A stretch of DNA of 64,000 nt from an uncultured Planctomycetales bacterium. GTDB taxonomy: Bacteria > Planctomycetota > Phycisphaerae > UBA1845 > PWPN01. A program made the translations under genes and the position numbers. The stretch is taken from contig CAZUAI010000006.1 of the NCBI GenBank assembly GCA_964617875.1, positions 42,877 to 106,876 of the forward strand, in the 5' to 3' direction. Under the pieces are notes generated by a model. The model was not told the origin of the DNA. It worked only from the letters and a program-made list of their open reading frames with translations, and searched no databases. Numbering within the stretch: the stretch's first letter is position 1; the number at the start of each line of letters is the position of its first letter. This document shows, piece after piece, positions 9,634 to 22,874 of this stretch.

Positions 9634-10344
9634 TCAGTCCATTCTCGCCCGTTGAAGCATCCGGGCCAGGTCCTCCCGAATCGGGGCCTCCACCGGCAAC
9701 GCACCGATGGCCTCCAGGGCGGGGGTCCGGTCGTATTCCGCCCGCCGGCTCTGAACCGCGCCGTCCTCCCACAGCGCATACGGCGCCCGCGCATCACCAT
9801 CCAGCGGCTGACCGAGCGAGCCGGGATTGACGATCTGCAGGGTTCCGTGGCGGCGGATCAGCGGGAGGTGCGTGTGGCCCGCCACGAGTAGGTCGGCCAG
9901 AACCCTGCCGGCGACGTCGTCGAGGATCGCATCGCATCCCTGGGGGGTCAGGCGGTAGTCGTACAGAGGGTCGATGGGCGTCGCATGCGTCACGGCGAAC
10001 GGAACGCCGCCGATTTCGCATCGCAGGCTCAGCGGAAGCCGGCCCAGCCACGCCAGGTCGTCCGGGCCCAGCTGCGCGCGGGTCCAGTCCCGCATGGCCA
10101 GGGCCAGGGGCTGCTTGGCCGGGCTGGCCTTGGGATCGGCCAGGAAGGCGACGGCATGGTCATGGTTGCCGCGCACGGCGATCGCCTCGTGCTGCCGAAG
10201 CCACGCCACCGCAGCCCCGGGGGCCGGACCGTAGTTCACCGTGTCGCCGGCGCAGATGACGTGGTCGAACCGCCCGGCGTCGCGTTCCACGGCGGCGAGG
10301 GCCCAGGGGTTGGCATGGATATCAGAAAGCATCAGAATCCGCAT
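9634..10344 (-). CDS. metallophosphoesterase (calcineurin-like, YfcE-type)
   Basis: [12 protein letters not shown]...GDTVNYGP...GNHD...GHTH motifs. Start is uncertain; the ORF extends to 10413, and 10344 is the first Met of the phosphoesterase fold. The stop lies 1 nt from the ZnR/HEAT ATG. Confidence 0.7.
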
Positions 10345-10536
10345 CGCCCAAACCATCTCCGAACCCGTGACCCATGGCGTCATCGTCGCCGTCGGCCCCC
10401 GGCCGGGACGCATCGCGTCCGCAGTATATCAAGGGGGACCGGGCGGCTGGGCATACCCGTACACGAACCCGGCCGGTTTTCGCTTCCGGTGGGGTTGCTT
10501 GCTGCCGCGCTCAGTCGGTGCGGACCCCCACCCAGG

Positions 10537-10603
10537 ACAGCGGGTAGGAGTCATCAGGCTCCCCGACGGGGAACCAATTCACGGCGGACTCCATCGCCCG
10601 CCG
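10537..10603 (-). ncRNA. fluoride riboswitch (crcB RNA motif), copy 1
   Basis: Minus-strand RNA GGGCGAUGGAGUCCGCCGUGAAUUGGUUCCCCGUCGGGGAGCCUGAUGACUCCUACCC matches the GGCGAUGGAGUyCGCC...CUGAUGAyUCCUrC consensus, with an inserted hairpin. It is one of three near-identical copies in the window. Confidence 0.8.
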
Positions 10604-10604
10604 G

Positions 10605-10633
10605 ATCTTAGCGTGAACGCTGTGGGGCCGCAA
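10605..10633 (-). promoter_or_regulatory. sigma70-like promoter for riboswitch copy 1 (-35 TTGCGG, 17-nt spacer, -10 TAAGAT)
   Basis: Minus strand reads CCTTGCGGccccacagcgttcacgcTAAGATccggcGGGCGAUGG. The same TTGCxx-17-TAxxAT architecture precedes copies 2 and 3. Confidence 0.5.
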
Positions 10634-10855: not shown

Positions 10856-13483
10856 ATGCCGATTCTGCCCAGCATCATACTGCCCAAGAACCTGGTGGCC
10901 GCCCTGAAACGTCACTCGTCGGACATCCGTGTTGCGCCGCTTCTGCTGGAAACGGCCTCCGTTGCGGCGCCTCTGGCTCTTGACAAGCTGGGGACAACAG
11001 CGAACGGGCTAAGCGAAGAAGCGGCTCAGGCGCGCCTGGAAGAGCACGGTCCGAATGTCGTTGCGCAGGAGCATCGGCACGGCAAGCTCGTCCTCCTGGG
11101 CAAGGCACTGATCAATCCCCTGGTGATCCTGCTGCTCATTCTGGCCGCGGTGTCGTTCCTCACCGGCGATAACCGCGCGGGAACCGTCATGTCGTTGATG
11201 GTCGTCCTCGGCGTGGTGCTGCGATTCGTTCAGGAATCGCGGGCCGATACCGCCGCGGCCAGACTGAAGTCCATGATCAGCGTAACCGCAACGGTCGTCC
11301 GCGAGGGGCGGACGCGAGAGATTCCGCTGGCCGATCTGGTGCCGGGCGATGTGGTCAGGCTTGCCGCCGGGGACATGATCCCGGCCGATCTTCGGCTCAT
11401 TTCCGCCAAGGATCTGTTTATCATACAGGCAAGCCTGACCGGCGAGTCGCTTCCCATTGAGAAGTTCGAGGTGACGGAATCGAACGGAAAACCAGCTCTT
11501 GAACTCCGGAATCTTTGCTTCCTGGGCACCAGTGTGGAGAGCGGAACGGCCACCGGGGTAGTCGTGGCCACCGGCTTGCAGACCTACCTGGGAACCATGG
11601 CCAGAGCCTTGGCCGGCGAGCAGGCACAAACCAGCTTCGACAAGGGGGTCAGTCGATTCACGTGGCTCATGATCCGCTTCATCGCCGTGATGGTGCCGCT
11701 GGTGTTTGTTATCAACGGCCTCACCAAGCATGACTGGCACGAAGCATTCTTCTTTGCGGTGGCGGTCGCGGTAGGCATGACGCCCGAGATGCTGCCGATG
11801 ATCGTGACCGTCTGCCTGTCGAAGGGCGCTCTGGCCATGTCCCGTCGCAAGGTCATCGTCAAGCGGCTCAACTCCATCCAGAATCTTGGTGCGATGGACG
11901 TGCTCTGCACCGACAAGACCGGCACGCTCACCATGGACCACGTGATTCTGGAGAAACATTGCGACGTCTTTCGGCGGGAGGATGATGGCGTCCTGATCCT
12001 GGCGTATCTCAACAGCCACTTCCAGACCGGCCTCAAGAATGTGCTGGACCGAGCCATCCTGGACCATCGGGAAGTCCACGACATGGTCTCCATCGCTGAC
12101 CACCTGAAAGTGGACGAGATCCCGTTCGATTTCTCGCGCAAGCTGATGTCCGTCGTCGTGCAGTTGCCGGAAGGAGGCCGTCGGCTCATCTGCAAGGGCG
12201 CGCCCGAAGTCGTCTTCCAGAGATGCAGCCAGTTTGAGGTTAAGGACCGGACGTACCCCATGCGGCAGGTCTACATTGACGATCTTCGCGAAGAGTACGA
12301 CGAACTCAGCGCCGATGGCTTCCGTGTGCTGGCCATTGCTCACAAGGATCTGGAGCCGAAGGCCGCCTATTCCCGAGAGGATGAGTACGACCTGACGTTG
12401 AATGGCTACGTGGCCTTTCTTGATCCTCCGAAGGATTCCGCCGGGCCCGCGATCGAGGCGCTTGGCAAGCACGGCGTCGCCGTCAAGGTTCTCACGGGAG
12501 ACAACGATCTGGTCAGCCGAAAGATCTGTCATGAGGTCGGCATCCCGAGCGAGGAGGTATTGCTTGGCCCGCAAGTCGAGGCCATGTCCGATGCCGAGCT
12601 GGCGCATGCCGCGGAGCACACGTCCCTGTTTGCCCGCCTTTCTCCGGCCCACAAACAGCGGATTATCCGTGCGCTGCAGGGGAACGGACACGTGGTCGGT
12701 TTTCTGGGCGACGGAATCAATGACTCGCCCGCCCTCCGCACCGCCGATGTGGGAATCTCCGTCGATACCGCCGTCGATATCGCCAAGGAAGCCGCCGACG
12801 CCATCCTGCTCGAAAAGAGCCTCATGGTGCTGGAGGAAGGCGTCCTCGAAGGACGCAAGGTCTTCGCCAACATCCTCAAGTACATCCGCATGGGAGCCAG
12901 CTCGAACTTCGGCAACATGTTCAGCGTGCTGGGGGCGAGCGTCTTTCTGCCGTTCGTGCCAATGGCCCCGATCCAGATCCTTACCAATAACCTGCTGTAT
13001 GACTTCTCGCAGGTTCCCATTCCGACGGACAACGTGGACCCCGAACAGATTGCCAAGCCCCGACCATGGTCGATGAATGAGATTACTCGGTTCATCCTCT
13101 TCATTGGCCCGTGCAGTTCGATTTTCGATTACACGACCTATTTCATCATGCTTTACGTCTTCCGTTGCTGGAGCCCCGACCGTGCGTCGTTGTTCCAAAC
13201 CGGCTGGTTCGTGGAATCCCTTATGACGCAGACGCTCATCATTCACATCATCCGGACCAACCGGATCCCGTTCCTGCAGAGCCGCGCCAGCCTGCCTCTC
13301 TCGATTACTACGCTGTTGATCATGGGTATCGGGATGTGGCTGCCGTTTTCACCTGTTGCATCTTCACTGGGCTTTACGCCACTGCCCGGTCTGTACTGGC
13401 CGCTGCTCTTCCTGACGTTGCTCTGCTACGGTTTGCTCACGCAGGCCGCCAAGACCTGGCTTCTGCGTAAGGCGTGGATCTGA
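10856..13483 (+). CDS. mgtA: magnesium-translocating P-type ATPase
   Basis: 875 aa with DKTGTLT, TGDN and GDGINDSPAL motifs and the typical MgtA N-terminus. Confidence 0.9.
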   Translation: MPILPSIILPKNLVAALKRHSSDIRVAPLLLETASVAAPLALDKLGTTANGLSEEAAQARLEEHGPNVVAQEHRHGKLVLLGKALINPLVILLLILAAVSFLTGDNRAGTVMSLMVVLGVVLRFVQESRADTAAARLKSMISVTATVVREGRTREIPLADLVPGDVVRLAAGDMIPADLRLISAKDLFIIQASLTGESLPIEKFEVTESNGKPALELRNLCFLGTSVESGTATGVVVATGLQTYLGTMARALAGEQAQTSFDKGVSRFTWLMIRFIAVMVPLVFVINGLTKHDWHEAFFFAVAVAVGMTPEMLPMIVTVCLSKGALAMSRRKVIVKRLNSIQNLGAMDVLCTDKTGTLTMDHVILEKHCDVFRREDDGVLILAYLNSHFQTGLKNVLDRAILDHREVHDMVSIADHLKVDEIPFDFSRKLMSVVVQLPEGGRRLICKGAPEVVFQRCSQFEVKDRTYPMRQVYIDDLREEYDELSADGFRVLAIAHKDLEPKAAYSREDEYDLTLNGYVAFLDPPKDSAGPAIEALGKHGVAVKVLTGDNDLVSRKICHEVGIPSEEVLLGPQVEAMSDAELAHAAEHTSLFARLSPAHKQRIIRALQGNGHVVGFLGDGINDSPALRTADVGISVDTAVDIAKEAADAILLEKSLMVLEEGVLEGRKVFANILKYIRMGASSNFGNMFSVLGASVFLPFVPMAPIQILTNNLLYDFSQVPIPTDNVDPEQIAKPRPWSMNEITRFILFIGPCSSIFDYTTYFIMLYVFRCWSPDRASLFQTGWFVESLMTQTLIIHIIRTNRIPFLQSRASLPLSITTLLIMGIGMWLPFSPVASSLGFTPLPGLYWPLLFLTLLCYGLLTQAAKTWLLRKAWI

Positions 13484-13787
13484 AATGAAGCGGCCGGCGA
13501 TGAATGCCGTATGACCGCGAGCGGGGCGGCATCACCATAGTGTTGCGGATCCCGACCAGATCACATAGAATCGGGTTGGCGATGGGGTTCGCCAGCGTCC
13601 CGACCCGCCGTGGCTCGGACCAACCGCCTGCCCGACGACAGGCTGATAACCCCTGCTGAACTGCGTGCTACGTTCCGGCAGGGTATCAGCCGCTCAATCT
13701 CAACTCTGTCGAACGACGACGCAGCCAGAAGGATCGCTCCGGCCGTTCTGCTTCGCGCTCGGGACGGAGCCTTCGGAGAGCGAGCGG

Positions 13788-15902
13788 ATGAACGAACATC
13801 ATCAACGGTGTATCGCCACCACACTGCGTCATATCGACGGCGTGTTCGCCGAGATCGAGGGGATTCTGGCCGCCATCGGCACGGGTTCGCCGCTGTCCCA
13901 GTACGCCCTGGACCTGGAGCCGATGCAGCGTGGGGTCGTCGAGGACCACCTGCACCGGATTCGGGAGGAGATGGTGGAGGCGATGAAACGGCTCGGCATT
14001 CCGCTGGACGGGCGTCGGACCAGCGCCTGCTGGTCCATCCGCAATCGCCTGCTCGGGGCGTCGATCGCGATCGCCGAGATGGAGCCGCCTCATCTTCGGG
14101 GGTACGGGGCACTGGATGCGCACGACAAGGCCGAGATCACGCGGGTCTGTGCGGAAATGGAACGGCTGATCGGCCGGGTCGATTCGTATCTGGCCCGCGT
14201 GCACGGCGGCGACCTGGCGCAACGAATCGCGCATCTGGAAGGTACGCCGGTGGATCGCGACTTGCTCACCACCCTGGAGCAGATCATCGGCAGGCACCAT
14301 CTGATCGAGCTGCGGCCCGCGCTCGACGTGATCCTCCATCGCCTGGAATCACCCCAGTTCGAGATCGCCTTTTTCGGTCGCGTCAGCTCCGGGAAATCCT
14401 CGCTGCTCAACCACATCCTCGGCGAAAGCGTCCTGCCCGTGGGCATTACCCCGGTGACCGCGGTGCCGACCCGGCTGCGACGCGGGGAGCGGCCGGAGAT
14501 GGTGGTTCACTTCGAGATCTCGTCGCCCGCCCGCCTGCCCATCGATCAGGTCGCCGAATTCGTGACGGAAGAAGGCAATCCGCGAAACCGTCGCCGGGTG
14601 AAGTGGGTTGAGGTGACGGTCTCCACGGCGCAGTGCTCCGAGGGCGTCGTGTTCGTGGACACTCCCGGCGTCGGATCGCTGGCCACCGTCGGCGCGGCCC
14701 AGACCATGGCGTACCTGCCGCGATGCGATCTCGGAGTCCTGTTGCTCGACGCCGGTTCGACCCTGCACCAGGAAGACCTCCGGATCCTGCAGGGTTTCGA
14801 GGAAGCGGCCATTCCGGCGATGGTCCTGCTCAGCAAGTGCGACCTGCTCCGCGCGGATGACCGGCAACGCATGATTCACTACGTCGAACAGCAGGTTCAC
14901 GAGGCCTTGGGGCTTTCGATCGTCGTGGCGCCGGTGAGTACCGTCGGCCCGGATGCGCATCTGGCCCACGAATGGTTCGAGGCGCATGTCCGTCCGATCA
15001 TGCGGAGGCACCGGGAGCTGACGGCCGCTTCGATTCGGCGAAAGGTCGGAGCGCTCCAGGAAACGCTTATCGCGACGTTGAGCAGTATGCTCCGCCGGAG
15101 AAGCGGCCGCTCCGCACCCGTAGCGCGTGACAGCGCCGAGGCGGCCCGGCTTCTGGAGGAGGCCGCGACGCGCATCGCCCGGTTCACGGAATGGGCCGCG
15201 GATTTCGATGCCCGCCGGACTTCGGAGGATGTGGCGCGGCTGATCGAAGACGCCGCCGTGCAGATGGTGCCGGGGCGGGGCGGCGGCCAGACCCCGCCGG
15301 TCGGTCTTCGCGACGTTCTGCTGACGCGGCTGGCGACCGAGGCGTCGTCGTTCCGGGACGGCGTCATCGGGTTGCAGGCCGACCTGACGAACACGTTGAT
15401 TCAGCTGGGCGAAAAGGTCGGCAGCATCGGAGGCCCTGAGGCCCGGAGGCTGGAGATGTCCCTGACCCCGCTTCCGCCGGCCCGCGAGGAGAATCTGGCC
15501 GCGATTCCCGACATTCGTCCGTCGAAGTTGCTCATGTCGTGGCGATGGCTTGCGCGGGCAAGGCTGCGTGCGGGCCTGCGTCGTCACTGCCGTTGGCCGA
15601 TCGAGACGGCGCTTGGCGATCATCGTCGCGAGTTGCGAACGTGGTTGAAAACCAACCTGGACCGCCTCGTGGAGGCCTACGAAACCCATGCCGGTGTGTA
15701 CCGGGAGGAACTGCGCCGCGCCACCGAGGCGTCGGGAGACGGCGGACGCGCCGAAGATTCCTCACTGGAAGAGGATCTGGACAGGTTGCAACGGCTCGCG
15801 GGACGGTTCCGCGAGCCGCAAAGCCCGTCCACCGCGGGCGAGCCGGCAGAGTCGGCCCCGACCGGACAGGGCGACGGGACGGTTCCGGTGCAGGCCTGTT
15901 GA
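13788..15902 (+). CDS. dynamin-like GTPase (DLP-C) with ~190-aa helical N-terminal extension
   Basis: P-loop GRVSSGKSSLLN, G3 DTPGVGS, G4 SKCD. cGGAGAG lies 7 nt before ATG 13788. The ORF is open from 13665. Confidence 0.7.
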   Translation: MNEHHQRCIATTLRHIDGVFAEIEGILAAIGTGSPLSQYALDLEPMQRGVVEDHLHRIREEMVEAMKRLGIPLDGRRTSACWSIRNRLLGASIAIAEMEPPHLRGYGALDAHDKAEITRVCAEMERLIGRVDSYLARVHGGDLAQRIAHLEGTPVDRDLLTTLEQIIGRHHLIELRPALDVILHRLESPQFEIAFFGRVSSGKSSLLNHILGESVLPVGITPVTAVPTRLRRGERPEMVVHFEISSPARLPIDQVAEFVTEEGNPRNRRRVKWVEVTVSTAQCSEGVVFVDTPGVGSLATVGAAQTMAYLPRCDLGVLLLDAGSTLHQEDLRILQGFEEAAIPAMVLLSKCDLLRADDRQRMIHYVEQQVHEALGLSIVVAPVSTVGPDAHLAHEWFEAHVRPIMRRHRELTAASIRRKVGALQETLIATLSSMLRRRSGRSAPVARDSAEAARLLEEAATRIARFTEWAADFDARRTSEDVARLIEDAAVQMVPGRGGGQTPPVGLRDVLLTRLATEASSFRDGVIGLQADLTNTLIQLGEKVGSIGGPEARRLEMSLTPLPPAREENLAAIPDIRPSKLLMSWRWLARARLRAGLRRHCRWPIETALGDHRRELRTWLKTNLDRLVEAYETHAGVYREELRRATEASGDGGRAEDSSLEEDLDRLQRLAGRFREPQSPSTAGEPAESAPTGQGDGTVPVQAC

Positions 15903-15914
15903 ATCGGCAGATCG

Positions 15915-17705
15915 TCAACCGGGCAGAAAGGCTGCCTCCGGGCGCCAGGGGAAACACAGACTCCGTTGGCCGACAAGCTGCGTCAATGCGCGTCGATGGG
16001 CCTCGGTCTCGTCGCGGTTTTCGAGGCTGCGCCGCAGGGCGTCGTGCTTTATCGCGAAGCTCTGCATGTCCTCGGCCAGCGCGCCGAGGTGTCGTGCGGC
16101 TTCCCGCAGCAGGAACCGGCGTGTTTCGCCGTCCGGCACCAAGACGATGAGAGGTGCCAGATGCCGCAGGCAGACGCCGGAAGACCGGGCATAAGCCTCG
16201 CGGCCTCCTGCATCGGCCAACAGGGTCGCCAGCCGCTGCGTGCCGTCGCGCTCGTGGTCCGCCAGCAGCCGGCAGACACGGCAGGCGGCCTGCCGGCCGG
16301 TGAGTTCGTCGAACGCGGCCTCCGGCCCGTTCTCGTTTGCCGCGAAAGCCGACAGGGCGGTCGTCCGTTTCTCCAGCAACGCGAAGTAGCCCACGCTCAG
16401 GCCCCGGGGCGAGGAGATGCCGGCGAGCTGCCAGGTGTGCAACGGGCAGAAGCCGCCCTCTTCGGCGAAGGACTGCTGAGCGGCTTCATCGGTCGCGAGA
16501 GCGTGCTGCCATCGTCGGAGGAAATCGAAGGCCGCTTCGGTCAGGTGGTTGCAGACGGGGCAGGTTCCCGCACGGAGCGCGGCCACGATCTCCGATTCTT
16601 CGATGGGTTCGGCCGGTTTCGTCCGCGGCGTCGGCGATGAACACGGCGGACCTCCCCGCGCCGCGGCCGGAGGCGTCGGCGTCGCGTCAACCTGACCCGC
16701 GAGAATCCCCTCGCGCAGCCGTTGAATGGCGGTTCGCCGCTCGACGGCTTCCGGGTGCTGCTGGCCTGCGATAAGTCCCTCGGCACGATCCAGGATCGCG
16801 GCCAGGAACGTCGTGGTCCGCTGGTCGGTCAGGAAATCCGCCAGCGCCGCCTCCAGGGCCGGAAGCCCGCTCTGTGCCAATCCGTGTGCGTCCCGCGCGG
16901 CTCGGGCCGCCAGCGCCGCCCGCGACGACAGGGGAAACAGGGGCGGCCGCGCCGCGCCCATCCGACGGGAGAGATTGTCGCCGATGAACCGCAGGGCAGC
17001 CTCCCGCTCCGCGTTCGCCAGCAGGTCCATCTTGTTGACGACGAAGAAGACCTTGCGGACATGCGCGCGGAGGCGGTCCAGGAACTCCAGTTCCGTCGCG
17101 GCCAGCGGACCGTCGGCGCTGGTCACGAACAGAACCGCATCGCACTGGGGGACGAAGGCATACGTCGTTGCGGTGTTCGCTTCGATGGCCGAGCCGATGC
17201 CGGGCGTATCCACGAACTCCAATCCACGCCGCAGGAAGGGCGACGGGAACTCCACGTATACCGCCTTGATTCGCTTCCGGTTGGCCGGATTGCCCGTCTC
17301 CGTCACGTACTCGGGCAGCGCCGAAATCGGGGCTTCGTCATCGAACGACCGGTTCTGACGGGAAATGACCAGCCGTTCCTCCGGACCGAACCGCAGGATG
17401 GTAATGGCGGACGTGAGCGGCAGGATGCCCGTCGGCAGAAGCTCCCGGCCGACGATGGCGTTCATGAGCGAACTCTTGCCGCGTTTGAACTGGCCCACAA
17501 CGGCCAGGGTGAAGCGGTCTTCGGCCAGCTTGACCATCAATTCATGGCAGGCGGCGACCCGGTCATCCCCGCCGTGCCGGCCGAGCCAATGGTCCAGGGC
17601 GCGAACCTGCCGTGCCACCGCCTGCCTGGCCCGCACGTAGGCCCTCAGACGCGACGAATCGGACTCGAGCGGGGACACCGCCGGACTCGTGGGCGACGGC
17701 ATCAT
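15915..17705 (-). CDS. dynamin-like GTPase (DLP-B) with Cys-rich C-terminal domain
   Basis: GQFKRGKSSLMN, DTPGIGS, NKMD. The C-terminus carries CPVC...CPLH...CRVC...CLRH. Its ATG overlaps the DLP-A stop (ATGA). Confidence 0.8.
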   Translation of the reverse strand: MMPSPTSPAVSPLESDSSRLRAYVRARQAVARQVRALDHWLGRHGGDDRVAACHELMVKLAEDRFTLAVVGQFKRGKSSLMNAIVGRELLPTGILPLTSAITILRFGPEERLVISRQNRSFDDEAPISALPEYVTETGNPANRKRIKAVYVEFPSPFLRRGLEFVDTPGIGSAIEANTATTYAFVPQCDAVLFVTSADGPLAATELEFLDRLRAHVRKVFFVVNKMDLLANAEREAALRFIGDNLSRRMGAARPPLFPLSSRAALAARAARDAHGLAQSGLPALEAALADFLTDQRTTTFLAAILDRAEGLIAGQQHPEAVERRTAIQRLREGILAGQVDATPTPPAAARGGPPCSSPTPRTKPAEPIEESEIVAALRAGTCPVCNHLTEAAFDFLRRWQHALATDEAAQQSFAEEGGFCPLHTWQLAGISSPRGLSVGYFALLEKRTTALSAFAANENGPEAAFDELTGRQAACRVCRLLADHERDGTQRLATLLADAGGREAYARSSGVCLRHLAPLIVLVPDGETRRFLLREAARHLGALAEDMQSFAIKHDALRRSLENRDETEAHRRALTQLVGQRSLCFPWRPEAAFLPG

Positions 17706-19555
17706 CGCTGATCCTGTTCTCGGGCGGCCGTTGTCGCAAGACGCTCCTTGAGCCCCCGCAGGCCGGCGACCGCCGCCTCGAGCCGCGCGATTTCCGGGGC
17801 AACCGTCGCCGAGTCTTCCGTGCGACGTCGTCGAGCGGCGCCAAGGGCCCGGCGAGTCGCTTCAATCGTCTGCCGAAGGCTGTCTTCCAGGGCGTCACGG
17901 AAGTCCTGGATGCTTGTCCTGAGATTCTCCAGGGTACTCCATCGAAGATCTCCGATGTTGCGAGTCACGAGGTACTCCACCTGGTCCGCGAGTCGCCGCC
18001 GAATGCGGGAATGCCGCAAGCGCCGCGGAAGCACTCTGTCGATCCAGTCCGTGGGAATCGAGCCGGGTCCCTGAATCGCCCACTTGTGAACGCGCCAGCA
18101 GGGCTGTTCCACCTTCGCCAGGGCGATCTCGCGGTGCTGCGGCTCATACGGAACGTCGAAGACCTTCGCAATGGAGGCGTGAACCGCGGCGACCAGTTCG
18201 GCCGCCCGGCGCTGATGGGGCCGCAGGGCCTCGTGCAGTTCGCGCTCGCAAAGCTGATGGGCGGCACCGAACTCCCGCTCGAAAAAACCGGGGATGGCCG
18301 CGGCAATGGCCTCGCGGGCGGTCTCCTCCGACCACCGGTTCCCGTCCCGAATCTCGCATTCGCGGAGGACTTTCGTGAAGAACTCGATGCTTCCGGGCAG
18401 CATCGCATCGGCGCGCATCTTGACGGCTTCCGCCAGACGCTGTTCGTCCCTGGCAAGGCGGTCGAGGGCCACGATGCGCCGTTCCTCGATTTCGGTCAGG
18501 CTGTTCTCGAAGCGACCGATGCGGTCGTCGAGGTCGGCCAGCGGCATCTGCAGGGACCGCAGAGTCAGTTCCAGGCGATGCTGGACATCGGCGAGAATGT
18601 CCCCCGCCTGGCGGGCCACCGCGCGGCTGAGCACGTCTTTCTTCTCGGTGAGCAGGAAGCTGACGATCTGCTCTTCGATCGCCGCCACGCCGCTCCGTTC
18701 CCAGGCGGCGTCATCCTGCCCCTGGCGAGCCGCCAGGCCCTGGCGGGCCGAGGCGCAGAAGATCGGCGGCGGCGAGGTGAACCCGACGTGCTCGCAGAGC
18801 GCCCGCTGGAGAAACCGTACGGCCTCGTCCCGCTCGGCCGCGTCGAGGTAATCCACCTTGTTCAGGATGAAGAACAGGCGGGCCAGTTTGCGGCGCGCGA
18901 GCTTGAGAAACTCCACCTCGACCTCGGTGATCGGCGGATCCGCGGACACCACGAACATCGCCGCATCGCACTGCGGGAGAAAGTTGACGGTCGCCTCGGT
19001 GTTGTGGCGAAAGGTCGAACCGATGCCGGGCGTATCGATCAGCGAGAGGCCCCGACGCAGCACCGGCGCGGGATACGCGGCTTCGATCAACCGGACCCCC
19101 AGGTGGTTGCGCGGGTTCGCGCTTTCGGCGACAAAACGCGCGAGGAAACCCGCCAGGGCCGCGGCGTCCGGCCCGAGGAGCCGCTCTTCCGGCTTCCCGT
19201 TTTCGAATACCACCCGGGCCGCCGGCTGCTCGCCGCCGTGCAGAAACGTCGGGATGGACGTGACCGGCACAACGGCGGCAGGCAGGACGGGGGCTCCCAG
19301 CAACGCATTGATCAACGTGCTCTTGCCGCGTTTGAACTGGCCGAGCACGGCCAGATGACAGCGTTCCTCCCGCAGACGTTCGTGCAGAGCGAGAATGCGA
19401 TGCCGGTCGGCCCCGAATTCCTCGCCCATCGCCCCCACCTGACCGGCGGCTTCCTGCAGGAGGGTTGGCAGTTGGACGGACTCCGCGACATGCCGGGCCG
19501 TCGTCTCCGGCCGGTTGTCCGAATCCGCGTCGGCATGGAGGACGAAATCAGTCAT
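17702..19555 (-). CDS. dynamin-like GTPase (DLP-A)
   Basis: GQFKRGKSTLINALLG, DTPGIGS, NKVD, and a long coiled-coil stalk. Overlaps the TPR gene's stop by 8 nt. Confidence 0.8.
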   Translation of the reverse strand: MTDFVLHADADSDNRPETTARHVAESVQLPTLLQEAAGQVGAMGEEFGADRHRILALHERLREERCHLAVLGQFKRGKSTLINALLGAPVLPAAVVPVTSIPTFLHGGEQPAARVVFENGKPEERLLGPDAAALAGFLARFVAESANPRNHLGVRLIEAAYPAPVLRRGLSLIDTPGIGSTFRHNTEATVNFLPQCDAAMFVVSADPPITEVEVEFLKLARRKLARLFFILNKVDYLDAAERDEAVRFLQRALCEHVGFTSPPPIFCASARQGLAARQGQDDAAWERSGVAAIEEQIVSFLLTEKKDVLSRAVARQAGDILADVQHRLELTLRSLQMPLADLDDRIGRFENSLTEIEERRIVALDRLARDEQRLAEAVKMRADAMLPGSIEFFTKVLRECEIRDGNRWSEETAREAIAAAIPGFFEREFGAAHQLCERELHEALRPHQRRAAELVAAVHASIAKVFDVPYEPQHREIALAKVEQPCWRVHKWAIQGPGSIPTDWIDRVLPRRLRHSRIRRRLADQVEYLVTRNIGDLRWSTLENLRTSIQDFRDALEDSLRQTIEATRRALGAARRRRTEDSATVAPEIARLEAAVAGLRGLKERLATTAAREQDQR

Positions 19556-19976
19556 GGCACTCCGAATCTGTCGGGAAATCGGCGGGGACGGAATCCGCTT
19601 GCGTCATGCCGGCCGAATCTGCCTCCGGCTCAGGGGGCTCCTGCCCCGGCCAGAAGTGGCGCCACATGCGGCGAACTGTGGCATCGTCCCGGCGTTCGCG
19701 AAAGAGCTGGGCCAGCAGGGCGCGGGCTTCGTCCATGCGGTTCAGATGGGTCAACGCAACGGCCCAGTGAACCTTGAACGACGGCTCAAAGGGGTTTACG
19801 TATACGGCGCGTCGGAATTGGGACTCGGCCAGTTCGAAGGCCTCGCGCTGGAGGAAATAGCAACCCATATCGTCGCGGTCGTAGCCCAGATAGTGGCTGG
19901 GCCGCAGGACTTCCTCGCGGATGATCTGCGGGTCGCGAGTGCGGTGTCGCCTTTTCGGCTCGTCCGGGAGGCTCAT
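19548..19976 (-). CDS. small TPR-repeat protein
   Basis: MSLPDEPKRRHRTRDPQIIREEVLRPSHYLGYDRDDMGCYFLQREAFELAESQFRRAVYVNPFEPSFKVHWAVALTHLNRMDEARALLAQLF. The ORF is open to 20030; the start was chosen at the first Met after the terminator. Confidence 0.55.
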   Translation of the reverse strand: MSLPDEPKRRHRTRDPQIIREEVLRPSHYLGYDRDDMGCYFLQREAFELAESQFRRAVYVNPFEPSFKVHWAVALTHLNRMDEARALLAQLFRERRDDATVRRMWRHFWPGQEPPEPEADSAGMTQADSVPADFPTDSECHD

Positions 19977-20018
19977 GGTCCGCCATACCTCCGTGCCGCA
20001 GGCCGACGGCCTGCCAAC

Positions 20019-20058
20019 AGAAAACCCCACACAGGAATCGTCCTGGCGGGGTTCCCGT
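20019..20058 (-). terminator. intrinsic terminator forming the expression platform of fluoride riboswitch copy 2
   Basis: Minus-strand RNA CCCCGCCAGGACGAUUCCUGUGUGGGGUUUUCUG: GC stem plus U tract between the aptamer and the TPR start. Confidence 0.5.
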
Positions 20059-20085
20059 TACACGATGGCCCCTACCCAGGTCGAT

Positions 20086-20139
20086 TCGGGCAGGAGTCAT
20101 CAGGTCGGCAGGACCGCTTAACGGCGGACTCCATCGCCA
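20086..20139 (-). ncRNA. fluoride riboswitch (crcB RNA motif), copy 2
   Basis: UGGCGAUGGAGUCCGCCGUUAAGCGGUCCUGCCGACCUGAUGACUCCUGCCC, followed by a conserved CCUGCCCGaAUCGACCUGGGuAGG hairpin. Confidence 0.8.
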
Positions 20140-20144
20140 TAGAT

Positions 20145-20173
20145 ATTTTAGGCCCGGCGGGCGTCGTGTGCAA
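20145..20173 (-). promoter_or_regulatory. sigma70-like promoter for riboswitch copy 2 (-35 TTGCAC, 17 nt, -10 TAAAAT)
   Basis: Minus strand reads CCTTGCACacgacgcccgccgggccTAAAATatctaUGGCGAUGG. Confidence 0.55.
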
Positions 20174-20188: not shown

Positions 20189-20539
20189 TCAGGCCTTTGC
20201 GCCCACGCCGTTCGCCCGGTACTTGATCACGCGGACTTTTTCCAGCGTGATGAGTCCTTCCACCACCATCTCATCGATGTAGGGCAGGAGCAGATTGACC
20301 TTCTCCTCGCTGTCCACGATCTCGATGATAAAGGGGAGGTCTTCCGACAGCCGCAGGATCTTCGTCGTGTGCAGCCGGCTGTGGGCGCCGAAGCCCATCG
20401 GGCCGCGAAGCACCGTCGCCCCGGCCAGATGAAGCTCGCGGGCCTTCATCACGATGGCCTCGTACAGCGGCTTGCCGTGCCACTTGTCGTTCTCGCCGAT
20501 GAAGATGCGCAGCAACTGCGCTTCGCCTTCCAGTTTCAT
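20189..20539 (-). CDS. DUF190 (PII-like) protein, common CrcB neighbour
   Basis: MKLEGEAQLLRIFIGENDKWHGKPLYEAIVMKARELHLAGATVLRGPMGFGAHSRLHTTKILRLSEDLPFIIEIVDSEEKV. Confidence 0.75.
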   Translation of the reverse strand: MKLEGEAQLLRIFIGENDKWHGKPLYEAIVMKARELHLAGATVLRGPMGFGAHSRLHTTKILRLSEDLPFIIEIVDSEEKVNLLLPYIDEMVVEGLITLEKVRVIKYRANGVGAKA

Positions 20540-20542
20540 TCA

Positions 20543-20956
20543 TCACCTCACCACCGTCACGGTGCACGGCGCGTAACTCAGGACCCGCTTGGAGACCGAA
20601 CCCAGCAGCCAGCGCTGGAACCGGCTCTTGCCTCGATGGCCCATCACGATCATGTCGGCCTGGCGCTCGGCGGCCTGATGGACGATCTGATCGGCCGGAT
20701 GGCCTACCACGACGGCCGTTTCGAGAGGAATCCCTGCCGCCTTCGCGGCCTCGCGAAAGACGACGAAGTCCTTCTCGAAGTGCTCCGTCGCCGCATCCAG
20801 CAGGGCGGGTGTCTCCACCGACGTGGGCGGTTCCGACGGCTGGGCTACCGACACGACGGTCACGCTGGCACCGAATGCCCTGGCCAGTTCCAGCGCGAAC
20901 TGGAATGCCCGTTTCGCCGACTCGGATCCGTCATGAGCTGCAAGAATGGTTTTCAT
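20543..20956 (-). CDS. universal stress protein (UspA family)
   Basis: 137 aa, MKTILAAHDGSESAKRAF...ADMIVMGHRGKSRFQRWLLGSVSKRVLSYAPCTVTVV. Confidence 0.85.
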   Translation of the reverse strand: MKTILAAHDGSESAKRAFQFALELARAFGASVTVVSVAQPSEPPTSVETPALLDAATEHFEKDFVVFREAAKAAGIPLETAVVVGHPADQIVHQAAERQADMIVMGHRGKSRFQRWLLGSVSKRVLSYAPCTVTVVR

Positions 20957-20965
20957 GGTTACCTC

Positions 20966-22219
20966 TCACGATTCAGAAGGGACGGGCTCACCATCCGCCG
21001 TCGCGGTTGCCACAGCCGCCTGGCCGCCGGCCGATGCCGTGCCCTGTCCTGTGACTCCAGTGCGTTTCGACAGCAGGTCCCGCGGAATGAAGAAGGCATT
21101 GGCGATCAGCGTCGGGATCACGGCGCTGGCCACCACCGCCGCAACGAGATACGAGTACTGGCTCTGCGTGATGACATTGTGCGTCAGCCCGAAGAGCGCG
21201 GAGATCGTCCCGAACGTCAGCCCCGTGGACATGAGCAGCGTGGTGTACACGGCCTGGCGGTACTCGTAGCGAAACGCCCTGGTGGTGGGGTACACGCCCA
21301 CGCACTTGCTCACCACCTTGGCGACCAGCAGGATCAGGAAGGTCGCCGGGGCCGCAAGCAGGGCCGGAACCGAAACGAAGGAACCGGCCCGGATGAAGTA
21401 GAACGGCGTCAGCATTCCGAACGTCAGCGTGCGCAGCCGGCGAACCAGGACGTGATCCTTGCCCACGGTGCCAGCGAGGACCATGCCGATCATGTACGCG
21501 GGCAAGACCGCCTCGCTGTCGGCCCACGCCGCCAGGGCTCCCATGCTGAACAGCAGCAGCAGCAGGTACTTCGCCTCCAGTTCCGAGGGGCGGTTGCCGT
21601 ATCGTTTGAAGAACCACGGCGTCAGAAAGGGGATGACGGCGAAGACCACGACGCTCGATCCGACGAACACGCCCGTGCGCATCGTGAACGGCGAGAAGAT
21701 CAGACCGAGAGCAATCACCGTGCCGAGGTCGTTGATGAAGCAGGCGGCCAAAACGGCCTTGCCGAAATCCGTCTTGTTGAAGCCCAGTTCGAGCATGACC
21801 GCATAGACGACGGCGACCGAGGTTGTGGACAGGGCCACCCCCGCCAGCCAGCTCGCCATCGGGGTCCAGTGCAGCACATAGTACGCCACGGCCGCGCACC
21901 CCAGGAACGGCGCGAAAAAAGCGACCAGGCCGACGACGGTGGCCTCCTTCCACTTGGCGCGGAACACCGTCGGGTCCAACTCGGCCCCGGCCAGAAACGT
22001 CAGGACGATGGCACCCGTCCCCGACAGGAACTTGATCCAGGGTTCGTGTGCTCCCAGCGCCGCCGTTCCGGCGAGAGCACCGATGATCAGTTGGGCGACC
22101 GTGCCCACCACGATCTCGGAGAGGGCCGTCGCCACGCGAAGCCAGATCGAAAGGAGCGTGGCGAGCAGGGCGAGTCCCAGCCACAACGCCGCCGTAAGCC
22201 AGACGTCGGTCATGTGCAT
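20966..22219 (-). CDS. cation:proton (Na+/H+) antiporter, CPA family
   Basis: 417 aa, 12-13 TM, typical NhaP/Kef-type membrane domain. Confidence 0.8.
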   Translation of the reverse strand: MHMTDVWLTAALWLGLALLATLLSIWLRVATALSEIVVGTVAQLIIGALAGTAALGAHEPWIKFLSGTGAIVLTFLAGAELDPTVFRAKWKEATVVGLVAFFAPFLGCAAVAYYVLHWTPMASWLAGVALSTTSVAVVYAVMLELGFNKTDFGKAVLAACFINDLGTVIALGLIFSPFTMRTGVFVGSSVVVFAVIPFLTPWFFKRYGNRPSELEAKYLLLLLFSMGALAAWADSEAVLPAYMIGMVLAGTVGKDHVLVRRLRTLTFGMLTPFYFIRAGSFVSVPALLAAPATFLILLVAKVVSKCVGVYPTTRAFRYEYRQAVYTTLLMSTGLTFGTISALFGLTHNVITQSQYSYLVAAVVASAVIPTLIANAFFIPRDLLSKRTGVTGQGTASAGGQAAVATATADGEPVPSES

Positions 22220-22289
22220 CGACCTCCTGCCGCAGCCTTCCCCTCCGCCTGACCGCCCTCGACGGCCTTCCGGTCCGCATTCGTGGCCG

Positions 22290-22676
22290 TCACATGATTC
22301 CGAACCATCTCTCTGCCGCCCGGTAGCCCACCAGGACGGCGCAGAAGCCCAGGGTCACGCTCAGCAACAGGTTCATAATCGCCCGAAGGCCCTGCCCGTC
22401 GTTGGCCATCGCGAAGGTCTCCCACCCGAACGAGGAAAACGTCGTGAAGCCGCCCAGCACGCCGACGGTCAGACCGATGCGATAATCCTGGCGAATCAGA
22501 ATCGGACCGCTGAAGACGTAGTTCAGGAAACCAATCACCAGACATCCGATAATATTGACCGTCAGGGTCCCCACCGGAAAGGAACCATTGGACAGCCTCT
22601 GGCCCCAGCCCTGAACCAGGTAACGAAGCACGGAACCGAAGCCGCCGCCCATGGCCACCATCACGATCTTCACCAT
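22290..22676 (-). CDS. crcB: fluoride ion channel CrcB/Fluc
   Basis: MVKIVMVAMGGGFGSVLRYLV...TLTVNIIGCLVIGFL...GLTVGVLGGFTTFSSFGWET. GAGGAAG lies 8 nt upstream of ATG 22676. The ORF is open to 22706. Confidence 0.9.
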   Translation of the reverse strand: MVKIVMVAMGGGFGSVLRYLVQGWGQRLSNGSFPVGTLTVNIIGCLVIGFLNYVFSGPILIRQDYRIGLTVGVLGGFTTFSSFGWETFAMANDGQGLRAIMNLLLSVTLGFCAVLVGYRAAERWFGIM

Positions 22677-22706
22677 CCAACGCTTCCTCGCATGCCGGTC
22701 CGCCAA

Positions 22707-22782: not shown

Positions 22783-22842
22783 CGATGCGGGCAGGAGTCA
22801 TCAGGTCAGCGCGACCGGTTAAGGGCGGACTCCATCGCCGCC
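22783..22842 (-). ncRNA. fluoride riboswitch (crcB RNA motif), copy 3, canonical position upstream of crcB
   Basis: CGGCGAUGGAGUCCGCCCUUAACCGGUCGCGCUGACCUGAUGACUCCUGCCC. Confidence 0.85.
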
Positions 22843-22845
22843 GCT

Positions 22846-22874
22846 ATACTATCCTCTGGCACGACAAGTTGCAA
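22846..22874 (-). promoter_or_regulatory. sigma70-like promoter for riboswitch copy 3/crcB operon (-35 TTGCAA, 17 nt, -10 TAGTAT)
   Basis: Minus strand reads CTTGCAActtgtcgtgccagaggaTAGTATagcggcGGCGAUGG. Confidence 0.55.

Follow-up and report, generated by a model that had tools for sequence, protein, structure and literature searches.

Dynamin-like GTPases as probable members of a fluoride-riboswitch regulon in bacteria and archaea

What are three dynamin-like GTPase genes doing side by side in one planctomycetal genome, and when would the cell use them? The window analysed here is a stretch of 64,000 nt (G+C 65-70%) from contig CAZUAI010000006.1, in which genes for three dynamin-like proteins (DLPs) meet: DLP-A and DLP-B on the minus strand and DLP-C, convergent with them, on the plus strand. 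The roles of most bacterial DLPs are obscure because the timing of their use is not known. An earlier note on this DNA had singled out the 12 nt between the convergent stop codons and had compared the cluster with the Leo/Eleos and DynA systems. We confirm its observation and support its interpretation in part; the interest of the locus lies in a conserved control by fluoride and not in the 12-nt junction.

The three genes belong to a fluoride-response island of about 15 kb (7.9-22.8 kb) that holds four fluoride riboswitches and, besides the DLPs, genes for CrcB, a Na+/H+ exchanger, a universal stress protein (USP), DUF190, a metallophosphoesterase and enolase (Table 1). We regard it as very probable that fluoride riboswitches regulate the DLP genes and that these genes belong to the fluoride regulon. 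The fuller reading, to which we assign a probability of roughly 0.55, is that the DLPs are the effector genes of this island, fluoride-induced GTPases resembling mycobacterial IniA that would protect the membrane.

Fluoride riboswitches at the locus and in its relatives

All three open reading frames (ORFs) were confirmed at the coordinates previously assigned to them, and their products score above the Pfam Dynamin_N gathering cut-off of 27 bits. Searches with the Rfam model of the fluoride riboswitch (RF01734, gathering score 34) and with a covariance model of our own (R1) located four elements, every one in a 5' leader position on the same strand as its genes. On the minus strand, riboswitch 1 is followed by the genes for CrcB, the Na+/H+ exchanger, USP and DUF190, and riboswitch 2 by those for a TPR-like protein, DLP-A and DLP-B; riboswitch 3 and DLP-C, on the plus strand, converge on the DLP-A/DLP-B unit, and the riboswitch 4 unit lies further left. 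The riboswitch that the earlier note had placed over the DLP-A/DLP-B pair stands, but it is not peculiar to the pair, DLP-C having its own, and the previous inventory omitted three more riboswitches and the 142-aa TPR-like gene. Because each unit is headed by its own riboswitch, both convergent arms appear to be controlled by fluoride.

The link recurs far outside the window. We surveyed 80 genomic loci with DLP-A relatives at 33-69% identity, drawn from Planctomycetota, Verrucomicrobiota, Desulfobacterota, Bacillota (relatives of Moorella), Nitrospirota, Chloroflexota, Spirochaetota (Leptospira), Acidobacteriota, Alphaproteobacteria and others, as well as from six metagenome-assembled genomes (MAGs) of Methanomicrobia/Methanobacteriota. 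Riboswitches were detected by a motif scan and then by a covariance model built from 51 upstream elements, which identified 135 of them in the window and the 80 loci together. A same-strand riboswitch lies upstream of the DLP-A relative in 71 of the 80 loci, representing more than ten phyla and including Methanomicrobia, and in 53 it is no more than 250 nt from the start of the protein match. Composition-matched shuffles of the 80-locus set yielded about two motif matches per shuffle, against about 130 observed. Within P1 and P2 of the 51 DLP-associated elements, both positions vary in seven pairs and pairing is kept in 89% of cells, a result reached by none of 500 shuffles, and the Rfam model confirmed 18 of 18 matches in nine sampled loci, the archaeal ones included.

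The other two families behave in the same way. DLP-C relatives have a same-strand upstream riboswitch in 61 of 80 metagenomic loci (no more than 300 nt away in 33), and ten of the 19 negative loci have less than 250 nt of upstream sequence; DLP-B relatives sit in riboswitch-headed operons in all six further loci, and those found within DLP-A loci do likewise. As a control, we took four unrelated plasmid DLP clusters (from Lysinibacillus, from a cyanobacterial plasmid beside cas1/2, from Paenibacillus beside UvrD and from Anabaena), and no riboswitch was found in any of the four. Since the relatives' loci are positive and the unrelated clusters negative, the sequence comparison indicates that the association is specific to these DLP families and very unlikely to reflect chance. 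Fluoride control as a conserved property of all three families across phyla is, on this comparison, well supported.

The same data bear on the proposal that the cluster is an anti-phage defence module of the Leo/Eleos or DynA type. Three clustered dynamin-family genes would suit such a module, and a PADLOC scan does return LeoA/LeoBC matches of 19-63 bits. However, these matches cover only parts of the models, and the NCBIfam models fail by a wide margin (LeoA/HP0731 at 16-17 bits against a cut-off of 325, DynA at 43-68 against 1600). The surroundings are those of a fluoride regulon and not of a defence island, every unit is under a fluoride riboswitch both here and in more than 130 related loci, and the plasmid DLP clusters that do occupy defence-like contexts (cas1/2, UvrD) have no riboswitch. 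We consider a defence role highly improbable, and the analogy drawn in the earlier note has to be given up.

How the switch would operate is best read from the riboswitch 2 leader, which is preceded by a promoter-like site and carries a putative expression platform (Table 1). A strong hairpin 3' of the aptamer terminates in UUUUCUGUU, the minimum free energy fold of the leader has z = -5.6, and an alternative hairpin sequesters the 3' pseudoknot strand of the aptamer. We infer that this leader follows the usual antitermination (ON) logic. A rise in cytoplasmic F- would cause the aptamer to lock its 3' pseudoknot strand, and the locked aptamer would block the downstream terminator hairpin, allowing transcription to read through into the TPR/DLP-A/DLP-B unit; DLP-C would be turned on in parallel from the opposite strand.

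Riboswitch 3 belongs to a long variant: a 25-nt hairpin follows P1 as an insertion, and the pseudoknot carries a compensated change (GGAGU/ACUCC to GGGGU/ACCCC). Judged by sequence, the riboswitches are ordinary RF01734 members apart from this inserted-hairpin form. We note that the long variant (85-100 nt) occurs elsewhere too, mainly before DLP-C homologues, with the extra hairpin lying between P1 and the AACCGCC linker and with an inserted stem that covaries (GUCCCGA/UCGGAC, GCCCCGG/CCGGGGC, GCCUCGA/UCGAGGC). There is also a second long type, in which P2 is extended.

The 12-nt spacer between the convergent stops was reported correctly to the nucleotide. It had also been argued that the junction leaves no room for terminators and that the transcripts must overlap. 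The first half of the claim holds, in that neither a terminator-like site nor a significant fold was detected at the junction (the fold is no better than shuffles); for the second half Rho offers an alternative. With no terminator-like feature there, either the induced transcripts must overlap in their 3' parts or Rho must stop them, and in our scheme the two would run into each other's 3' ends. The convergent 12-nt arrangement was not found in the nearest relatives examined, and the junction is therefore probably incidental. We see no sign of a selected function for it, given the lack of a terminator-like site, an ordinary fold and absence from the nearest relatives.

The gene calls themselves appear secure. 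The translational coupling proposed for DLP-A and DLP-B is borne out by an ATGA overlap of stop and start, and the TPR-like gene opens their operon with an 8-nt overlap with the DLP-A start. The 617-aa, 596-aa and 142-aa products have been called identically and independently in other assemblies, and in the nearest relative a TPR-like orthologue (56% identical) immediately precedes DLP-A. The DLP-C ATG at 13788 is preceded by GGAGAG, and its product begins with the MNE.H start common to homologues.

Table 1. Features of the fluoride-response island and long riboswitch variants in other loci. Coordinates refer to the window unless a locus label (L) precedes them.
Feature	Coordinates	Strand	Details
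DLP-C	13788-15902	+	704 aa; Pfam Dynamin_N 80.4 bits
Spacer between convergent stops	15903-15914		12 nt; DLP-C TGA 15900-15902, DLP-B TCA 15915-17
DLP-B	15915-17705	-	596 aa; Dynamin_N 102.2 bits, DUF6062 33.7 bits
DLP-A	17702-19555	-	617 aa; Dynamin_N 86.5 bits
TPR-like protein	19548-19976	-	142 aa; weak TPR_19/TPR_16 matches
Riboswitch 1	22785-22848	-	Rfam 51.1 bits, R1 62.6 bits; heads CrcB, Na+/H+ exchanger, USP, DUF190
Riboswitch 2	20084-20147	-	Rfam 49.5 bits, R1 63.7 bits; heads TPR, DLP-A, DLP-B
Riboswitch 3	13569-13662	+	Rfam 44.3 bits; heads DLP-C
Riboswitch 4	10538-10607	-	Rfam 37.9 bits, R1 44.9 bits; heads metallophosphoesterase and HEAT-enolase
Promoter-like site, TGCACA-16-TAAAAT	20145-20172	-	Ends at riboswitch 2 start; consensus scan 9/12, pattern match only
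Terminator-like hairpin and U-tract	20016-20056	-	GGGAACCCCGCCAGGA-CGAU-UCCUGUGUGGGGUUUUC UGUU; putative riboswitch 2 expression platform
CrcB/Fluc fluoride channel gene	22290-22706	-	Pfam CRCB 94.8 bits
Na+/H+ exchanger gene	20966-22219	-	417 aa; Pfam Na_H_Exchanger 119 bits
USP gene	20543-20956	-	Pfam Usp 127 bits
DUF190 gene	20189-20539	-	Frequent CrcB partner; Pfam DUF190 141 bits
Metallophosphoesterase gene	9634-10413	-	Pfam Metallophos_2 82.9 bits
Enolase ORF with N-terminal HEAT segment	7917-9800	-	Enolase_C 408, Enolase_N 197, HEAT_2 31.5 bits
P-type cation ATPase	10856-13483	+	E1-E2, Cation_ATPase_N, Cation_ATPase_C
Long riboswitch variant	L162:5907-6001	-	
Long riboswitch variant	L081:4153-4247		
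Long riboswitch variant	L082:5411-5508		
Long riboswitch variant	L083:1399-1496		
Long riboswitch variant	L091:1751-1847		
Long riboswitch variant	L093:1834-1925		
Long riboswitch variant	L144:5785-5871		
Long riboswitch variant	L152:5085-5173		

Among the neighbouring genes, the enolase ORF runs upstream in frame without a stop through a HEAT segment (HEAT_2 at ORF residues 94-182), and its real start is probably downstream of 9634. In other loci, HEAT repeats form a protein of their own (about 130-170 aa) that either precedes enolase or has its own riboswitch upstream; this protein seems to be a further, so far unrecognised part of the fluoride regulon, fused to enolase in the window. The P-type ATPase lies between two riboswitch units and has no riboswitch of its own, and similar ATPases occur in three of the other loci. 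A 430-aa ORF (20988-22280, minus strand) was dismissed as a shadow frame of the Na+/H+ exchanger, as it has no Pfam match and a junk-like composition; tblastn nevertheless "finds" it in related high-GC loci, where such matches mark the exchanger.

Architecture of the three GTPases

The G1 (GxxxxGKS), G3 (DTPG) and G4 (N/SKxD) motifs are present in all three DLPs, as GQFKRGKS, DTPG and NKVD in DLP-A and as GRVSSGKS, DTPG and SKCD in DLP-C. DLP-A and DLP-B share 39% identity along the N-terminal helix, the G domain and the first stalk helix, and each of them shares 30-32% with DLP-C in the G domain. Compared with PDB sequences by profile search, the three proteins match the bacterial dynamin-like protein (BDLP) of Nostoc punctiforme, Campylobacter jejuni DLP1/DLP2 (CjDLP1/2), IniA and the mitofusins with E from 1e-37 to 1e-10, and EngA/Der/Era rank lower (1e-13 to 1e-5); the NCBIfam EngA model gives 35-44 bits against a cut-off of 306. 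The assignment to the dynamins made in the earlier note thus held in the profile searches, and membership of the EngA/Era-type small GTPases is ruled out by the PDB profile and fold searches.

DLP-A has the full layout of an IniA/BDLP-like protein. Its AlphaFold2 (AF2) model (pLDDT 86.4, pTM 0.76) consists of the G domain followed by long stalk helices (305-336, 339-407, 410-466, 511-580 and 582-615), and Foldseek places IniA (6J72) first, with E 5.7e-23 over 606 aligned columns, and BDLP next. The loop 467-502, of low confidence in the model, is located at the tip of the stalk and is rich in Trp; P485 and W487 are invariant and W492 is at least 90% conserved. DLP-C (AF2 pLDDT 83) has an all-helical stretch of 190 residues at the N terminus, then the G domain and stalk, and again IniA is the top Foldseek match (E 4e-17), followed by BDLP. 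The helical N-terminal extension of about 190 aa had been foreseen, and it is kept in the more than 100 full-length homologues, which cover 91-100% of DLP-C including these residues. Full-length homologues, intact G motifs and a confident model rule out a pseudogene. No Pfam match was found for the N-terminal domain, and homology with the extension of CjDLP1 could not be demonstrated (template-modelling (TM) score 0.25). On the strength of the models, we suggest that DLP-A and DLP-C are mechanochemical GTPases of the IniA/BDLP type, with a stalk of four helices and a conserved loop at its tip.

These structural matches also speak to a different possibility, that the DLPs have a DNA-related role like that of E. 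coli CrfC, together with the MutS-like ATPases that belong to the fluoride regulon. MutS_V pairs often lie nearby, at times sharing an operon with DLP-B, and weak partial matches to CrfC do exist. The CrfC matches reach 24-31 bits where the cut-off is 1146, they are confined to the P-loop region, and the best structural matches are IniA and BDLP. We judge such a role very improbable.

DLP-B is built differently, and the standard BDLP layout ascribed to both members of the pair applies to DLP-A only. Its profile match to BDLP (E 8.7e-37) is limited to residues 65-342; a dynamin G domain and one helix are followed by a Pro-rich linker and then by DUF6062 (PF19538) at residues 458-580 (33.7 bits against a cut-off of 27, and 37.5 for the isolated domain). 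Because the BDLP match ends at about residue 342 and DUF6062 follows, the claim of a standard layout is wrong for this protein. Two invariant CxxC...CxxH (Cys3His) motifs are formed by C382/C385/C420/H423 and C475/C478/C512/H515. DUF6062 has no match among PDB sequences and only weak zinc-finger-type matches in Pfam. The fusion of G domain and DUF6062 is kept in more than 100 homologues among the matches listed, of about 590 or 870 aa. We note that proteins with an FGE-sulfatase domain precede the 870-aa forms and that standalone DUF6062 proteins recur.

Possible roles under fluoride stress

In the closest relative (DLP-A 72% identical), a single operon contains a riboswitch, CrcB, the Na+/H+ exchanger, USP, DUF190, a standalone DUF6062 protein, a TPR-like protein and DLP-A; DLP-C is divergent, with its own riboswitch of 95 nt, and DLP-B is missing. 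Another island has all three DLP types in a different order, and in most phyla DLP-A stands single behind its riboswitch, often followed by enolase. Among the first genes after riboswitches in 160 loci, DLPs account for 84, Na+/H+ antiporter-like proteins for 14, MutS-like ATPases for 12 and a 250-aa AAA-like protein for 11; as the 160 loci were selected for DLPs, these counts do not measure the frequency of DLPs among all riboswitches. Phosphoesterases, enolase, HEAT and NUDIX proteins, formate-hydrogenlyase-like subunits, USP, CrcB and DUF190 are rarer in first position, and HAD and pyrophosphatase (PPase) genes are also found. In gene content, the islands are the canonical fluoride regulon plus DLPs.

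Reasoning from the stress-induced IniA/IniC proteins and from DynA, we propose that DLP-A and DLP-C would attach to the cytoplasmic membrane as peripheral proteins and that their GTP-driven assembly would repair or remodel the membrane under fluoride stress and so preserve the integrity of the envelope. DLP-B, in which the Cys3His metal-binding module replaces the stalk, could be a partner or regulator acting through G-domain heterodimerisation. IniA itself has been proposed to maintain the membrane under chemical stress. Resting as it does on analogy, the membrane-protecting function is the tentative part of our reading.

Several observations weigh against it. No transmembrane or strongly hydrophobic segment was detected outside the G domain in any of the three DLPs, and membrane binding is consequently argued solely from the position and conservation of the tip loop. 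DLP-B has no stalk, with DUF6062 in its place. DLP-A is usually paired with neither DLP-B nor DLP-C, and since it usually stands alone behind its riboswitch, an obligate three-part machine is unlikely. Riboswitch 3 has no clear terminator, and the fold of its leader is no better than shuffles (z = -1.2). Finally, the recurrent neighbours are mostly cytosolic (enolase, metallophosphoesterase, MutS-like ATPases, cytidylate-kinase-like and HEAT proteins), and for that reason a cytosolic role of the DLPs is equally compatible with the company that they keep.

One such role would be repair: the DLPs, and above all DLP-B with its Cys3His domain, would spend GTP on remodelling or reactivating enolase, phosphoesterases and other proteins that Mg-F or Al-F complexes have poisoned. 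Alternatively, they would handle the metal ions concerned and not act on membranes. Enolase adjoins DLP-A in about a dozen of the 80 loci; the operons repeatedly include standalone DUF6062 proteins, HEAT-repeat proteins and metallophosphoesterases; the two invariant motifs of DUF6062 and the lack of a hydrophobic membrane anchor would suit a cytosolic machine. Yet the adjacency of enolase is far from universal, and in DLP-A and DLP-C the stalk and tip loop known from the membrane-active IniA/BDLP proteins are complete. We know of no member of the dynamin family that acts as a protein chaperone, which also counts against repair, and we regard this explanation as unlikely.

The islands are unusually rich in P-loop NTPases: besides the DLPs, they contain MutS_V-only pairs, double cytidylate-kinase-like proteins and AAA_16-like proteins of about 250 aa. 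Dynamin-type GTPases are trapped by the transition-state analogues GDP-AlF4-/MgF3-, and the richness would suit a role of the DLPs as extra or fluoride-tolerant copies made under fluoride, a role already proposed for enolase and pyrophosphatase under riboswitch control, or as sinks for metal fluorides; the riboswitch regulon does include extra copies of fluoride-sensitive enzymes, for example enolase and PPase (PMC11139923). On the other hand, the three DLP families are almost always linked to a riboswitch, which argues for dedicated genes and not for housekeeping duplicates, and stoichiometric trapping presumably could not buffer millimolar fluoride. Compensation of this kind seems to us improbable.

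A bolder version of our proposal, speculative and in our view quite improbable, would make the three DLP families and DUF6062 dedicated fluoride-resistance effectors in bacteria and archaea, with fluoride itself gating their mechanochemical cycle. F- would induce them through the riboswitch and then, bound in the active site as GDP-MgF3-/AlF4-, might drive G-domain dimerisation and assembly. The toxic ion would thus be both inducer and allosteric activator of a machine that protects the membrane or deals with metal fluorides, and the Cys3His module of DLP-B could couple the machine to metal status.

Some islands are dense with switches. Five loci carry five to seven fluoride riboswitches per 10-18 kb, often as riboswitch-gene tandems on the same strand, and the riboswitch of the next gene lies immediately downstream of several DLP-C genes. 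Phage-type integrase genes adjoin two islands (L163:21754-21845 and L165:7567-9042), which suggests that fluoride islands can be mobile; mobility would agree with their having spread between phyla and to archaea. Beside the island in the window, neither an integrase nor a tRNA was found. In a Burkholderia cenocepacia blood isolate, a conjugative plasmid (NZ_CP073671.1, 104417-117316) has four riboswitch matches in a fluoride island, and its 701-aa dynamin-family protein aligns with DLP-C over residues 4-431. That island also contains DUF190, HAD, two pyrophosphatases, MutS-like, enolase and hydrogenase/NuoH-like genes. On the Lichenicola cladoniae plasmid NZ_CP053712.1, a dynamin-family gene is divergent from a riboswitch-crcB-USP unit.

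Comparison with known systems

The damage that fluoride does has been charted through the riboswitch regulon. The paper that first described the motif associated it with mutS, K+/Cl- transport and formate hydrogen lyase genes (PMC2864571), and a review published in 2024 names exporters, Na+/H+ antiporters, pyrophosphatase, HAD, enolase, formate hydrogen lyase and chorismate mutase (PMC11139923). GTPases, dynamins and DUF6062 are missing from the gene lists of both, and "GTP" does not occur anywhere in the latter. In the searchable literature, outside which Baker et al. 2012 and its supplementary gene tables fall, no paper pairs "fluoride riboswitch" with "dynamin", none contains "DUF6062", and nothing relevant was found on the riboswitch together with GTPases. 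What appears to be new, from the sequences, is thus a conserved and previously unremarked fluoride-RNA input to bacterial and archaeal DLPs, one of which carries a novel domain fusion.

Across many phyla, and in methanogens as well, three DLP families seem to be turned on by fluoride, a simple inducer that offers testable phenotypes in fluoride tolerance and membrane integrity. Cultured carriers are at hand in Neomoorella glycerini and Moorella sulfitireducens, both with DLP-A homologues, and the B. cenocepacia conjugative plasmid carries its DLP-C-like gene (product WP_212267544.1). Mechanochemical GTPases and a Cys3His domain, counted among the regulon's most constant members, point to a target, or a layer of defence, that is absent from current reviews and that could be the membrane or the handling of metal fluorides.

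The islands share the riboswitch class and the neighbours of the known fluoride regulon (crcB, CLC-F, Na+/H+ antiporters, enolase, PPase, HAD, MutS-like proteins and formate hydrogen lyase). With LeoABC/Eleos and Bacillus subtilis DynA they have in common the clustering of dynamin-family genes, but the context and regulation differ and the family models failed; DynA, moreover, is two fused DLP halves totalling about 1190 aa, whereas the DLPs of the window are separate proteins of 596-704 aa. The C. jejuni DLP1/DLP2 pair (5OWV), a co-operating DLP pair, is the top profile match for DLP-C (3.4e-18), and the G domain of 5OWV_A is offset in a similar manner (profile 270-374 against chain 277-383), which indicates a comparably long N-terminal extension. 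However, the two superpose poorly, and the C. jejuni genes are not known to be riboswitch-controlled. N. punctiforme BDLP (2J68/2J69), of the BDLP/mitofusin clade, is the top profile match for DLP-A (4e-30) and DLP-B, and its P-loop is of the same G..KRGKS type. With 695 aa, BDLP exceeds DLP-A in length, and it has a hydrophobic paddle where DLP-A has a short Trp-rich loop; DLP-B, unlike BDLP, has no trunk.

IniA of Mycobacterium (6J72/6J73), encoded together with IniC by iniBAC, is the best structural match for DLP-A and DLP-C. IniA is likewise a protein of about 600 aa with a G domain, a helical stalk and a tip loop and with no transmembrane segment. Sequence identity is only 17-21%, IniB has no counterpart here, DLP-B has DUF6062 and not a stalk, and the present families span many phyla and archaea. 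The inducers differ as well, cell-wall drugs acting through a protein regulator in iniBAC and fluoride through RNA here. Nevertheless, iniBAC, with two DLP paralogues in a single stress-induced operon, is the closest analogue at the level of the system.

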